A stretch of 3,964 bases of DNA from Escherichia coli (GTDB lineage Bacteria > Pseudomonadota > Gammaproteobacteria > Enterobacterales > Enterobacteriaceae): NCBI RefSeq assembly GCF_003334385.1, contig NZ_QOWN01000090.1; one strand, given 5' to 3'. Both the position numbers and the translations under genes were made by a program. The notes below the pieces were generated by a model that saw only the letters and a list, made by a program, of their open reading frames with translations, was not told where the DNA came from and searched no databases. Each line of letters begins with the position of its first letter. Positions within the stretch are counted from its first letter, which is position 1. Shown piece after piece: positions 1-3,964 of the stretch.

Positions 1-314
<314 letters not shown>

Positions 315-318
315 CAAT

Positions 319-341
319 TAATACGACTCAGTATGGGGAGA
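319..341 (+). promoter_or_regulatory. T7-group phage RNA polymerase promoter-like element P1, with predicted +1 at G336.
   Basis: TAATACGACTCAGTATGGGGAGA matches the T7 consensus TAATACGACTCACTATAGGGAGA at 21/23. The differences are at -5 (C to G) and -1 (A to G). The -12 to -8 specificity block CGACT and the GGGAGA initiation region are intact. It starts 5 nt after the upstream stop codon. Confidence 0.7.
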
Positions 342-428
342 GGGCCTCTGACGAACCCACAGATAGTGTGGTCTCATGCCCTTAGTTGCCCATATCTATT
401 TACGAATCCACCTTAAAGTCAATAGAAA

Positions 429-451
429 CAATACGACTCGCTAATGGGAGA
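429..451 (+). promoter_or_regulatory. T7-group phage RNA polymerase promoter-like element P2, with predicted +1 at G446.
   Basis: CAATACGACTCGCTAATGGGAGA matches the T7 consensus at 19/23, with differences at -17, -6, -2 and -1. It shares AATACGACTC and GGGAGAG with P1. It has the same orientation as P1, and the two +1 positions are 110 bp apart. Confidence 0.6.
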
Positions 452-472
452 GCGGTGACAAAAAGTTTTCCC
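446..472 (+). other. Predicted 5' leader stem-loop of the P2 transcript, resembling the phi10 leader.
   Basis: GGGAGAG (446-452) can pair with TTTTCCC (466-472) to give 7 bp including two G-U pairs, with a 13-nt loop. The T7 phi10 leader, as I recall it, is GGGAGACCACAACGGTTTCCCTCTAGA. Here the sequence is GGGAGAGCGGTGACAAAAAGTTTTCCCTCTATGA. Confidence 0.4.
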
Positions 473-640
473 TCTATGACAACTAACTGTAACTTATCGC
501 ATCCTTTCAGGGGCGGGATGACCAATTACAGACACCAAGCGTTCTACTTAAAGTGAATGCTTCCTGTGTGCTCTGGGTCAGTCGATAAGTGAATAGCAAT
601 AGACATCATATTAACTATGGTCTCTGGTCTACAGGGGCTA

Positions 641-780
641 AACTTAAAGTTTACTTAAAGACCTTAAAGTTATATTACTTGTTTACACAAGATAATAATA
701 AAAACTTAAAGAATAACTTTAAGAGTACTTATGATTATCTATCATTTAATCTTGTCATAATTCACTTTTGTAATAACTAA
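641..780. other. Strongly AT-rich tract, a candidate DNA-unwinding or origin-like region.
   Basis: I counted 28 G/C in 140 nt, about 80% A+T. The tract lies downstream of the two phage-type promoters and overlaps the densest heptamer cluster. It has no credible coding potential. Confidence 0.4.
650..678 (+). promoter_or_regulatory. Weak candidate sigma70 promoter with -35 TTTACT, a 17-nt spacer and -10 TATTAC.
   Basis: TTTACTTAAAGACCTTAAAGTTATATTAC has the same layout as the T7 A1 early promoter as I recall it (TTGACTTAAAGTCTAACCTATAGGATACT). The -10 lacks the final conserved T, so its activity is doubtful. Confidence 0.2.
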
Positions 781-844
781 CGATGTCTCCACAAGACACC
801 GATCCTATCAATCTCAAAGACATCCACAATGTTTACCCTTTGTT

Positions 845-879
845 CTGCTGGTCCTCCTTCATTTGAGGACCTTGGGCAG
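845..879 (+). other. Imperfect hairpin with an internal loop in the 5' UTR of the Rha-like gene.
   Basis: GGTCCTC (850-856) pairs with GAGGACC (865-871) as a perfect 7-bp stem with an 8-nt loop. It is extended by CTGC (845-848) pairing with GCAG (876-879) across an asymmetric internal loop. It ends about 30 nt upstream of the SD at 910-915. Confidence 0.35.
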
Positions 880-924
880 GTCAGTGGGTTGTGGCTCAGG
901 GTGCAAACAAAGGAGTACAACGAT

Positions 925-1629
925 ATGGCTCAACAAGTAATTAGCTTTAATAATGAATTCTCAATGTCTTCCTACGAGTTTCTGACCACGATTATCAATC
1001 CAGCCCGTGAAGAAGCAGGGGAGAAACCTGTCCGAAATAATGCCTTTATAGAGCGTGTCCGTGATGAATTGGACGGTTGCCAAAATTTGGTAAGCGATAT
1101 GGTTACACCAGCCGGAGGTGGTACTCCTATGGAAAACGTCATCCTCAATGGCGATCAATTACTTCTGGTCGGTATGCGAGAGTCTAAAGCTGTGCGTCGT
1201 AAGGTTCTGGAGTACATTCGACGAATTGAGAAGGCTAAGCAGTTATTGGAAGACCAGAAGAAACGAGCAGCTATCCAGTCAGCTAACCGTCGTGGCGTAA
1301 CGTGGGGTGATTTCTGTAAGGCCAACGAGCTACCCGCACAGAAACTACTACTTGCGCTCAGGAAGCAGGGACGCCTATTACGCTGGCGCATGGATAATAC
1401 TGTCACGGTTCATCCGCATTTTGCGCAATACTTTCGGATCATCAAATATAATGATGCGAAGTTCAGCTCTACAGGTATCAACTTCAGGTTGAACACCAAG
1501 GGGGTGGAGTTCTTCTCACAACCCGACCGTGTGGCCCGCTTCCGGGAAATCCTTGTTGAGCAATACGGGTCTGATATTGACAAGCAACGTCTATTGCAGT
1601 CGAAAGCGCGGCAGGCTGTAGAGTTATGA
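925..1629 (+). CDS. Phage-type regulatory protein of 234 aa. The N-terminus is Rha/Bro-like and the C-terminus is KilA-C/ANT (antirepressor)-like.
   Basis: A consensus SD AAGGAG at 910-915 lies 9 nt before ATG 925. The ATG at 829 given in the ORF track has no RBS. The N-terminal part (SSYEFLTTIINP...VRNNAFIERVRDEL...DQLLLVGMRESKAVRRKVLEYI) and the C-terminal part (VTWGDFCKANELPAQKLLLALRKQGRLL...TKGVEFF) resemble phage Rha/antirepressor modules by eye. The family call has not been checked with an HMM search. Confidence 0.8.
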   Translation: MAQQVISFNNEFSMSSYEFLTTIINPAREEAGEKPVRNNAFIERVRDELDGCQNLVSDMVTPAGGGTPMENVILNGDQLLLVGMRESKAVRRKVLEYIRRIEKAKQLLEDQKKRAAIQSANRRGVTWGDFCKANELPAQKLLLALRKQGRLLRWRMDNTVTVHPHFAQYFRIIKYNDAKFSSTGINFRLNTKGVEFFSQPDRVARFREILVEQYGSDIDKQRLLQSKARQAVEL

Positions 1630-1739
1630 ATAAGAGTATCAAGCTTGGCCCTCGTACACCAGAAAGCCGCAAAGCGTTACACCTGATGACAGTCGATAGT
1701 GCTTCCATTGTGCCCGCTTTGGGTTTGCCCCCCTCTTGA
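1626..1739 (+). CDS. Possible translationally coupled small ORF of 37 aa (MNKSIKLGPRTPESRKALHLMTVDSASIVPALGLPPS). It may be a gene remnant.
   Basis: Its ATG (1626-1628) overlaps the upstream TGA (1627-1629) in an ATGA arrangement. I recognise no homology, and it is below the ORF-track size cut-off. Confidence 0.2.
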   Translation: MNKSIKLGPRTPESRKALHLMTVDSASIVPALGLPPS

Positions 1740-1830
1740 TGAACCCTGTCTACGTAAAGGCTGCTTTGTGCCTCATCATAGTTGTTGTGGGATTATCATC
1801 TAAAGATTCTCATGGTTGATATAGGTGTCG

Positions 1831-1868
1831 GCGATCAATTTCAAATTATCGATCGAGATAAACGATCG
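1831..1868. promoter_or_regulatory. Cluster of three GATC sites and two CGATCG palindromes. It is a candidate operator or Dam-sensitive site upstream of the 158-aa gene.
   Basis: GCGATC lies at 1831-1836, with CGATCG at 1850-1855 and 1863-1868. The GATC cores are at 1833, 1851 and 1864. The cluster lies 60-100 nt upstream of GTG 1930. Confidence 0.3.
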
Positions 1869-1929
1869 GTGTGATGGCTGCAATCACGTTATCCTTTGGG
1901 CACCCTTCTGAAATTTTGAGGATATAAAT

Positions 1930-2406
1930 GTGTTTGGGCTTTTTAAGAAAAAGACAAAAGCGGAAAGACGCTATGATGTGACACGCATTCAGTACGAATT
2001 GGTCGTGATGTCATCTGGACTGATAAGCAAACAAACTGTGATGTTCAATGCTATGATGGATAAGGAGCGTAGAGAGTTAGAGGGCTCTCCGTATTTATCT
2101 GCGGGGTACATTACTCCTTGGGTTATTGGGTATATCACTGGCATTTTGGATGCGGTTACTCAAACTGAGGCTAACAGGATGGCATTTACGTCGGAAATGC
2201 TTGGGCTTATTTTTTCAGTCGTTTTCGGTGATGATAAGTCTCATGACGCCATGGTAACTTATATAGCCTGTAACGAAGCCTCCTCACCAGACCATGAATT
2301 TCATGTTACGTACGAGCTCTATATGACTGGTCTTGCGAAAGCTTTTAATGAGGTATGTGAGAATAAACCTGTAATAGGGCTCATGAACTATTTAATGCGG
2401 GATTAA
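1930..2406 (+). CDS. Hypothetical protein of 158 aa with a GTG start and no family that I recognise.
   Basis: GAGGA at 1917-1921 lies 8 nt before GTG 1930. The frame is clean and open with protein-like composition (MFGLFKKKTKAERRYDV...). The ATG at 1928 is in another frame and terminates after 17 codons. Confidence 0.7.
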   Translation: MFGLFKKKTKAERRYDVTRIQYELVVMSSGLISKQTVMFNAMMDKERRELEGSPYLSAGYITPWVIGYITGILDAVTQTEANRMAFTSEMLGLIFSVVFGDDKSHDAMVTYIACNEASSPDHEFHVTYELYMTGLAKAFNEVCENKPVIGLMNYLMRD

Positions 2407-2865
2407 AATTTCCTACAAAAATCTGAGCGTCTATCTAATAGTTCATCCTCTCGCGTTGTCCCCGTAGCCCTCCTTGAGTTTGCCCTGAAGCGAGGGAAGC
2501 TCCCCCCTTCAAGTCGAAAGATTGGGAACCTTCCAGATGTTCTGGCCTTGGTTCTATTCCGTTTGTGGGAATATTACAGGTATCCGACCTTGACCAGAGA
2601 TCACTCAGTGTGTAACCATAACTGTAACCAAATGGATTCATTATATCTTTAAGAAACAAATGGTTATTGAGTGATTGTCTTCGATGCTTCGATTCCCTTC
2701 GCCCGCTCCAATTTATCTTCGCCGTAATACTTCCCCATTTTGTTGTAAATAAAAAGCGTTTACGCAATGCAATCCTTTTGTAACAACCCAGGTAAAACAC
2801 CTTATTTTCAAGTTGTTAAATAAGTGGTTATCTACGCTTTTAACAAACGATTGATGGAATATTTT

Positions 2866-3891
2866 ATGAAAGGGAAATCTGCATTAACTCTTCTGCTCGC
2901 TGGTATATTTTCGTGCGGCACATGCCAGGCGACAGGGGCAGAAGTGACGAGTGAATCTGTATTTAACATTCTTAATTCCACGGGGGCAGCAACAGATAAA
3001 AGTTATTTATCGTTAAATCCAGATAAGTATCCTAATTATCGTCTTCTGATTCACTCAGCCAAATTACAAAATGAAATAAAGAGCCACTATACCAAAGACG
3101 AAATTCAAGGATTGCTAACATTAACAGAAAACACACGAAAGTTAACGTTGACGGAGAAACCCTGGGGAACGTTTATTCTTGCTTCTACTTTCGAAGATGA
3201 CAAAACAGCGGCAGAAACCCACTATGATGCTGTCTGGTTGAGGGATAGTTTATGGGGCTATATGGCATTAGTATCAGATCAGGGAAATAGTGTAGCCGCA
3301 AAAAAGGTTCTGCTCACCCTGTGGGATTATATGTCTACGCCCGACCAGATTAAGCGGATGCAGGACGTCATTAGCAACCCAAAACGACTGGATGGAATTC
3401 CCGTGCAAATGAATGCTGTGCATATCCGATTTGACAGCAACTCCCCCGTGATGGCAGATGTGCAGGAAGAAGGCAAGCCGCAGCTGTGGAACCATAAACA
3501 AAATGATGCTTTAGGTCTTTACCTTGATCTCCTTATACAAGCAATCAACACTGGTACTATTAACGCTGAAGATTGGCAAAAAGGTGACCGATTAAAGTCG
3601 GTTGCGCTGCTGATTGCTTATCTGGATAAAGCCAATTTCTATGTTATGGAAGATTCCTGAGCATGGGAAGAAGATGCCCGATTAAACACATCTTCCGTTG
3701 CACTGGTGACCTCTGGACTGGAACGTTTGTCAAACCTACTCTCGAAGAAAGACTCTGTTTTTGTCTCTGATTTACTACGCGAAGCTAAAGTCAATGAACT
3801 GGATGAAACTCTTTCAACAACGAGGTTGAACCACCTCATAGATAAAGGTTATGAAAGAATAACGTTACAGCTTGATTTAGGGGGAGAATCC
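2866..3891 (+). pseudogene. Exported GH15-family (glucoamylase / phosphorylase-kinase-like) glycoside hydrolase. It is inactivated by an in-frame TGA at 3658-3660 and 3'-truncated by IS186.
   Basis: It has an N-terminal signal peptide MKGKSALTLLLAGIFSCGTCQA. GH15-like motifs are YDAVWLRDS, NHKQNDALGLYLD and EDS*AWEED. The last corresponds to the conserved G-x-WEE catalytic-acid region, with TGA where GGA (Gly) would be expected. ORFs 2824-3660 and 3706-3903 are in the same frame. The reading frame runs straight into the IS186 terminus at 3892. Confidence 0.8.
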
Positions 3892-3964
3892 CATAAGCGC
3901 TAACTTAAGGGTTGTGGTATTACGCCTGATATGATTTAACGTGCCGATGAATTACTCTCACGAT
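3892..3964 (+). mobile_element. IS186 (IS4 family) terminal segment. It is the same end as at 1-75 and the element continues rightward off the window.
   Basis: CATAAGCGCTAACTTAAGGGTTG at 3892-3914 is the IS186 terminal IR as I recall it. The segment is the exact reverse complement of 1-75. The interior flank GGGGG-AGAAT-CC fits the IS186 target preference. Confidence 0.85.
3947..3964 (+). CDS. insL: IS186 transposase InsL, first six codons (MNYSHD). The CDS runs off the right edge.
   Basis: ATG AAT TAC TCT CAC GAT lies at 3947-3964 and matches the InsL N-terminus as I recall it. Confidence 0.7.

Follow-up and report, generated by a model that had tools for sequence, protein, structure and literature searches.

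Tandem T7-type promoters downstream of a truncated RAZR gene in an Escherichia coli tRNA-Gly island: a candidate control module responsive to phage RNA polymerase

The elements closest to the locus considered here are the tandem T7-like promoter islands, of which Chen and Schneider, in 2006, reportedly described 12 prophage-like examples of 4-13 kb in nine enteropathogens. These islands are said to carry two to three tandem T7-like promoters within 150-620 b and no RNA polymerase (RNAP) gene, with a tyrosine integrase upstream, terminal direct repeats of 17-24 b and, on the downstream side of the promoters, two to five genes that are phage-related but non-structural. Mosaic recombination between islands was reportedly seen as well, and the islands are said to have been proposed as possible satellite phages. 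We analyzed a 3,964-nt stretch of Escherichia coli DNA (contig NZ_QOWN01000090.1 of assembly GCF_003334385.1; hereafter the window) that contains two such promoters, P1 and P2. Every one of these features was found in the island to which they belong, with an Ant/Rha-like open reading frame (ORF1), a small ORF and a 158-aa ORF as the downstream non-structural genes, and nothing essential differs. The island class is already published (Chen and Schneider 2006, Nucleic Acids Res 34:1133; PMC1380254). What may be new is the link to the anti-phage gene RAZR, the mixed and swapped promoter specificities in homologous slots, and an integrase of the Studiervirinae type. A literature search returned no experimental follow-up of tandem T7-like promoter islands. 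We consider it probable that P1 and P2 are genuine promoters for RNAPs of the T7 group, that they form the control module of the island, and that its cargo is switched on by an infecting phage.

P1 (319-341, + strand; TAATACGACTCAGTATGGGGAGA) and P2 (429-451, + strand; CAATACGACTCGCTAATGGGAGA) agree with the T7 consensus used for counting mismatches (TAATACGACTCACTATAGGGAGA) at 21 and 19 of 23 positions, respectively, as the initial annotation of this DNA from its letters alone had reported, with predicted transcription start sites (+1) at G336 and G446. They are co-oriented at a spacing of 110 nt. Both combine an A/T-rich segment at -17 to -13 with the CGACT specificity block at -12 to -8, and both start with GGGAGAG from +1, so the retention of the CGACT block and of the GGGAGA(G) start that had been described for them is correct. 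P1 departs from the consensus at -5 (C to G) and -1 (A to G); P2 does so at -17 (T to C), -6 (A to G), -2 (T to A) and -1 (A to T). The -4 to -1 region accordingly reads TATG in P1 and TAAT in P2 instead of TATA. The substitutions had been placed within -6 to -1, which holds for all of them other than the change at -17 of P2. A position weight matrix based on all 17 promoter annotations of the T7 genome record gave P1 30.7 bits and P2 27.3 bits, values within the range of T7's own promoters (26.5-40.4 bits); the next-best site in the window scored -6.2. Several of the departures also have precedents in T7, with G at -5 present in phi1.3, and C at -17, A at -2 and T at -1 found among the class II promoters.

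These matches bear on the possibility of a chance likeness or of contamination by a cloning vector with a T7 promoter, which has nothing in its favor except that this promoter is common in vectors. A match of the P1 grade was found in 0/200 shuffles of the window. For sites with up to four mismatches, the grade of the weaker promoter, the expectation is 1.4e-4 per window and 0.18 per 5-Mb genome, and 0/300 shuffles contained one. Positions 75-3892 are 100% identical to the complete E. coli H7 chromosome, 201 complete E. coli genomes contain related intergenic DNA, at the same locus every time, and both P1 and P2 differ from the vector sequence. The statements of the initial annotation that two such sites cannot be chance and that vector DNA is unlikely are both upheld, and we regard this explanation as already refuted. 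P1 begins 5 nt past the TAG stop codon (312-314) of the upstream gene, so neither promoter is embedded in coding sequence. Judged by their letters, P1 and P2 are T7-type single-subunit RNAP promoters, neither chance matches nor vector DNA.

The same sites recur, often closer to the consensus, in related islands. The site homologous to P1 matches the consensus at 23/23 positions in loci L002, L004 and L006 and in many metagenome copies, and the site homologous to P2 reaches 21-22/23 in relatives (CAATACGACTCACTAAAGGGAGA or TAATACGACTCACTAAAGGGAGA). Island variants that lack RAZR have one or two perfect T7 promoters, and two contigs from a viral collection have three each, ~120 nt apart. Retrieval of loci by RAZR, with one genome per species, identified phage-type sites at most 15-60 nt from the RAZR stop codon in Klebsiella pneumoniae ATCC 13883, Buttiauxella and Shimwellia. 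Loci of Yersinia enterocolitica and Pectobacterium, retrieved via the 158-aa protein, have the same architecture with more degenerate sites. When metagenome contigs were scanned with a 22-mer from the conserved leader, 25 loci were recovered, and in all 24 of those with upstream sequence phage-type sites are located at fixed offsets from the leader block. All promoter sites face the cargo. In two comparisons between islands, differences were far rarer in promoter columns than in the spacers (2/46 versus 44/161, p = 5e-4; 5/46 versus 63/165, p = 3e-4), making the promoter columns ~6-fold better conserved. By these counts the promoter columns are under purifying selection across the island family.

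Across islands, the core from -7 to +6 (CACTATAGGGAGA) is constant and the specificity block at -17 to -8 varies. Two non-T7 types, ATTAGGGCA-CACTATAGGGAGA and ATTAGGTAG-CACTATAGGGAGA, were detected in 61 and 82 stretches, respectively, of viral contigs of ~40 kb, and in Klebsiella T7-like phages of ~40 kb, KP32 isolates among them, GGGCA-type and GGTAG-type sites each number 9-12 per genome. Both non-T7 types are real promoters. A single island may combine the T7 type with both Klebsiella types, and GGGCA and GGTAG interchange within the same slot. We also noted that the Klebsiella-type arrays (L006 4793-5370, L010 7642-8218 and L173-L197) contain as many as four promoters drawn from three specificities, T7-type CGACT, K11-like GGGCA and KP32-like GGTAG, and that E. 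coli ST167-like strains share an identical promoter array with K. pneumoniae ATCC 13883. The islands of Buttiauxella and Shimwellia (L013 7655; L015 7677) have a further promoter, ATGAGACCCA-CACTATAGGGAGA, for which no owner phage was found among the viral contigs; the cognate phage of this type may be unsampled.

The gene that ends just upstream of P1 is the 3´ fragment of RAZR, also named PD-T7-4 (75-314, + strand), a DUF4145/HEPN RNase anti-phage gene. The fragment comprises codons ~131-209 and the stop codon; the window copy is cut by IS186 at about codon 131, which leaves the C-terminal 79 codons. The intact gene (L001 11611-12240) matches PADLOC PD-T7-4 with E = 2.9e-100 and contains the Pfam domain DUF4145. 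PD-T7-4 emerged from a selection for T7 protection, and it is noted that it 'often overlaps an integrase gene' (PMC9519451). Renamed RAZR, the protein is a HEPN RNase with a ring-activated zinc-finger; it assembles around phage portal rings (those of T7, T3 and SECphi18) and makes the infection abortive, the T7 and T3 portal proteins being activators (PMC13017515). The downstream promoters are not mentioned in either RAZR paper (PMC13017515, PMC9519451). In this island the PD-T7-4 gene directly precedes P1; RAZR, however, senses the phage via its portal and is not driven by P1 and P2, which are located past its stop codon and face in the opposite direction from the gene. The promoters are kept without RAZR in some islands, and in L162 a short RAZR coding remnant was observed at the junction that follows the integrase gene.

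Alongside the observed identity to phage promoters, their conservation, the match of promoter types to real phages and the exact island boundaries, we propose the following sequence of events, in which both transcription by a phage RNAP and an effect on the phage are inferred. The 4.8-kb island of L001 has no RNAP gene; its only genes are those of the integrase and RAZR, together with two or three small ORFs. With no such polymerase encoded, the cargo would be silent until infection. An infecting T7-like phage would make its RNAP a few minutes in, and P1 and P2 would then fire, giving a transcript of an operon composed of a structured leader, an Ant-like protein, a small ORF and the 158-aa orphan. 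Because the cargo operon would be switched on once the phage makes RNAP, the phage's own polymerase would act as the infection signal. The most likely consequence would be interference with the phage, by abortive infection or parasitism, beside RAZR, whose anti-T7 role has been validated independently; mobilization of the island as a satellite would be possible in addition. The outcome may thus be defense, satellite mobilization, or both.

A more specific version of this proposal seems to us possible, at somewhat under even odds. In it, slots for T7-, K11- and KP32-type RNAPs would keep orphan effectors silent until a T7-like phage infects, whereupon these would abort or parasitize the infection, and the island would be a miniaturized descendant of an integrase-bearing T7-like phage, living as a satellite of virulent T7-like phages. 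Next to RAZR, a second tier would thus consist of the Ant-like protein, the 'DPRTPEGR' peptide, DUF6971, the 158-aa protein and one of 330-400 aa as effectors.

The leader between P2 and ORF1 is ~475 nt long and has two blocks conserved across genera. Block A (484-645, + strand) contains a predicted long-range stem between ACTTATC at 492-498 and GATAAGT at 584-590; among the islands of E. coli, Klebsiella and metagenomes its identity is 76-97%, and its fold shows one compensatory change, in the L006 lineage. Block B (844-880, + strand) is a predicted hairpin just 5´ of the ribosome binding site AAGGAG (909-914) of the first cargo gene, is ~78% identical even in the Buttiauxella and Shimwellia islands, and has one compensatory pair in its consensus hairpin. 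Folding thus suggests blocks A and B as structured RNA, a structure not established since there is one compensatory change per block. An Rfam scan of the window matched no family. At 467-476, the leader of the predicted P2 transcript has TTTCCCTCTA in common with that of T7 phi10 (T7 22919-22928), and pairing within GGGAGA...UUUCCC could give a 5´ stem-loop of the kind present in T7 late mRNAs.

The first cargo gene, ORF1 (925-1629, + strand), has a strong ribosome binding site and encodes a 234-aa protein of the Ant/Rha anti-repressor-like type. It matches the anti-repressor families phrog_10324 (1.3e-8) and phrog_20910 (5e-12) of PHROG, as well as temperate-phage antirepressors by tblastn, and its C-terminal ~145 aa are 48% identical to a Buttiauxella island protein (compared with L017 8629-9330). 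Between islands, the N-terminal domain of ORF1-type proteins, of a DNA-binding type, is swapped (Ant/Rha-like, KilA-N-like). The second ORF (1626-1739, + strand), whose start overlaps the ORF1 stop codon (ATGA), is truncated to 37 aa; its family comprises proteins of 64-76 aa with a 'DPRTPEGR' motif, and the window copy is 58% identical over 33 aa to L006 6378-6608. The third, the orphan gene (1930-2406, + strand), encodes a protein of 158 aa, predicted to be all-helical. It falls into 26 clusters, all from Enterobacterales, and its gene has an unchanged place in the islands of Yersinia and Pectobacterium. In fuller islands the cargo further includes a DUF6971 protein and the 330-400-aa protein. 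Cargo varies from island to island, and the promoter and leader module is conserved. No sigma70-like promoter was detected on the + strand ahead of the cargo in a crude scan.

Several observations count against the proposal that P1 and P2 switch on this cargo upon infection. G at -1 of P1 and G at -6 of P2 are found in 0/17 T7 promoters, and the exact P1 and P2 variants occur in 0 of 2.9 million viral contigs. Relative to the closest consensus allele, the window differs at 4/46 promoter positions and at 15/158 spacer positions (p = 1), and its P1 and P2 may be weak or dead. The 158-aa protein has no Pfam, NCBIfam, PHROG, PADLOC or phage match, and its AlphaFold2 model was unstable (one of five confident), with nothing found by Foldseek against the Protein Data Bank (best E = 0.66). 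The sigma70 scan was crude, and the cargo may also be expressed by read-through from RAZR. Finally, no experimental report was found of a phage RNAP initiating here or of the cargo affecting phages.

The window copy has two extra substitutions per promoter. We considered that its promoters had been retuned to another polymerase, a candidate rejected on finding neither variant among those viral contigs. Since the promoters change at the rate of the spacers and the variants occur in no viral contig, we read the substitutions as drift under relaxed constraint and not as adaptation. The two promoters had initially been called divergent; the substitutions are best read as drift of once-consensus sites and not as a new specificity. 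Residual activity of P1 and P2 is plausible, because their scores lie within the range of weak natural T7 promoters. The window is a worn copy, disrupted by insertion sequences (IS), of a known element.

It is also mosaic. Against the Yersinia enterocolitica island (L167), leader block A differs at 2/142 positions and the part with promoters and spacers at 47/163, which indicates recombination between islands of different genera. The promoter region of the window is of the E. coli type, though from leader block A onward (484-925) the window is nearly identical to the Yersinia island.

Such wear raises the question of whether the island is an inert relic of a decayed temperate T7-like prophage, its promoters without present function. 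Besides the drift of the window-lineage promoters at the rate of their flanks and the IS hit in RAZR, the likewise degenerate Yersinia and Pectobacterium copies and the kinship of the integrase with that of integrase-bearing Studiervirinae speak for this. The explanation may hold for the window copy, but not for the family, in which a compact unit with exact att sites recurs in many genera with no remnant of an RNAP or structural gene, the promoter columns are under purifying selection, and promoter types have been swapped to match different real phages. We consider a relic improbable.

The boundaries of the island are exact. In E. coli H7, the gene order is tRNA-Gly(CCC), a 535-aa tyrosine integrase, the 209-aa DUF4145 protein, a gap of ~610 bp with P1 and P2, a 234-aa ORF, a 158-aa ORF, a 23-bp repeat of the tRNA 3´ end, ygeQ and the ETT2 secretion genes. 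The island is ~4.8 kb long (L001 9869-14636) and is inserted at the tRNA-Gly gene glyU; the window covers its right-hand two thirds and the chromosomal flank. The right boundary, attR (2688-2710, + strand), is a 23-bp direct repeat of the 3´ end of tRNA-Gly(CCC) (TTCGATTCCCTTCGCCCGCTCCA) that exactly matches L001 9846-9868. The predicted empty site, in which tRNA-Gly is joined to window position 2711 onward, exists with 100% identity over 274 nt, and its sequence is at least 80% covered in 3432/5426 complete E. coli genomes. Because of the att repeats and this exact empty site, we conclude that the island is a 4.8-kb insertion with exact att boundaries. On the attR side, an arm (2590-2690) is conserved across variants and contains a recurring pseudo-ORF ('...TRDHS(V/M)CNHNCN' in L004, L005 and L015). 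The arm also holds repeated GTAACCA words (GTGTAACCATAACTGTAACCAAAT), which could be arm-binding sites of the integrase, and the region and positions 1085-1108 of ORF1 together make up an imperfect inverted repeat of 24 nt.

The window itself is bounded by IS sequence, as had been annotated. Positions 1-74, which interrupt RAZR, are an IS186/IS421-type end, recognized through an 85-nt inverted repeat, and their reverse complement is identical to the second such end at 3893-3964, which is inverted relative to the first. Neither IS is present at the otherwise identical H7 locus; in H8 the match coincides with an annotated transposase of the IS421 family. Both insertions are in targets of the form G-run...C-run (GGGTTACCTCCCC, GGGGGAGAATCCC), and the window may simply be a contig from short reads with IS copies at its ends. 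Outside the island, the chromosomal flank (2866-3892, + strand) consists of a ygeQ pseudogene, annotated as a truncated glycoside hydrolase 15 gene, and the next ORF (annotations of L001, L002, L004 and L005). In the window ygeQ (2866-3660; glycoside hydrolase family 15) ends at an in-frame TGA (3658-3660), and in other strains it is intact at the same place, with 1611 nt (L004 8465-10075, L005 7300-8910).

The tyrosine integrase gene (L001 10003-11610; Pfam Phage_integrase, 8e-18) lies outside the window, upstream of the promoters. Its closest phage relatives are integrase-bearing Studiervirinae (Warsawvirus vB_PsyP_3MF5 and phTUNSm/v; vB_PaeM-G11), with 28-31% identity over 96% of the length and E values down to 7e-59. 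In these phages the integrase gene is at a genome end, beside the last or first phage promoter (vB_PsyP_3MF5 = L198, 39105-40963; L200, 72-1532). This kinship suggests that the island derived from, or exchanged genes with, integrase-bearing T7-like phages. Those phages are complete genomes of ~40 kb with their own RNAP and structural genes, whereas the island has neither.

The phage satellites P4, PICI and PLE offer a second comparison. The island is similarly a small, integrase-bearing tRNA/att element with a defense gene and mosaic, variable cargo and, by the proposed analogy, would likewise stay silent up to the moment of infection by a specific helper or target phage. In contrast to these satellites, however, induction would use the phage RNAP directly and not derepression or an activator protein, and the target phages would be virulent and T7-like; Pfam, PHROG and further protein searches recognized no replication, packaging or capsid-remodeling genes in the island, nor was any sign of excision or packaging detected.

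A rival explanation, close to what Chen and Schneider reportedly proposed and to the idea of the initial annotation, is that the promoters are mainly an origin and mobilization signal and not a device for gene expression. The island would be a satellite with a T7-type origin, where transcription from the promoters into AT-rich repeats would prime the T7 replisome, and it would be packaged into T7-like capsids and transferred. The integrase with exact att sites, the presence/absence polymorphism of the island, an integrase lineage shared with integrase-bearing phages of the T7 subfamily, and the mosaic spread across genera are consistent with such a satellite. An island of 4.8-8 kb, however, compares with a 40-kb capsid, the genes that such a life cycle calls for were not recognized, and among the 28 environmental or viral-collection contigs (25 from metagenomes and three from a viral collection) there was no circular or concatemer junction, the integrase always being upstream.

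Features downstream of the promoters also bear on a satellite origin, since the initial annotation had likened the pair to the T7 primary origin. Here, as there, two co-oriented promoters ~100 nt apart (75 nt in T7) are followed by AT-rich DNA with CTT(T)AAG-type words. An AT-rich tract (661-780) has 80% A+T, measured in 40-nt steps, and CTTAAAG occurs six times within 412-711 on the + strand (starts at 412, 547, 643, 654, 663 and 705), compared to 0.076 expected, a count reached in 0/2000 dinucleotide shuffles. T7 has the one-base variant CCTAAAG in end-proximal arrays, with 11 copies in nt 1-340 and five in the last 270 nt, and P1 and T7 phiOR have similar flanks. In contrast to T7, the AT tract begins ~210 nt downstream of P2, and the promoters are followed by the conserved structured leader and the operon. 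When the T7 genome was compared with the intergenic region, the promoters alone aligned; the origin and the ends shared only 10-11-nt words, and the phi1.1A/B origin region (T7 5831-6010) gave no significant alignment. The resemblance is architectural only, and the earlier parallel with the origin is not borne out beyond that. The class II pause signal ATCTGTT was not found on the + strand.

Pentamers of the T7 primase recognition type number eight in the intergenic region of the window versus 3.1 expected (14/2000 shuffles). They are strongly enriched in the tandem arrays of L161 and L163 but not enriched in L006 and L010, and primase-site enrichment was dropped as evidence for an origin on account of this inconsistency between island variants. 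In these two RAZR-less islands (L161 4102-4380, L163 4276-4400), the integrase gene is directly followed by up to 12 tandem copies of GATGACCATAGGC and then by CCTATGTGGTCC-type repeats, with 31 putative primase pentamers against 6.2 expected; the 13-mer arrays of RAZR-less islands had no match in phages. On balance, we view a satellite whose promoters serve mainly as an origin as rather unlikely, though a good deal less so than an inert relic, and continue to favor a control module read by the polymerase of an infecting phage.

T7-like phages are models of strictly virulent phages and common therapeutic candidates against E. coli and Klebsiella, and ~4% of complete E. coli genomes have such an island, as does K. 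pneumoniae ATCC 13883. The island class is now tied to RAZR, a defense gene with a solved mechanism, which gives a ready experimental system in the same strains and with the same phages. If the proposal is true, a phage RNAP that serves as the trigger would be an unusually direct infection sensor, and the islands would supply uncharacterized effectors against phages and might be the first satellites known for T7-type phages.

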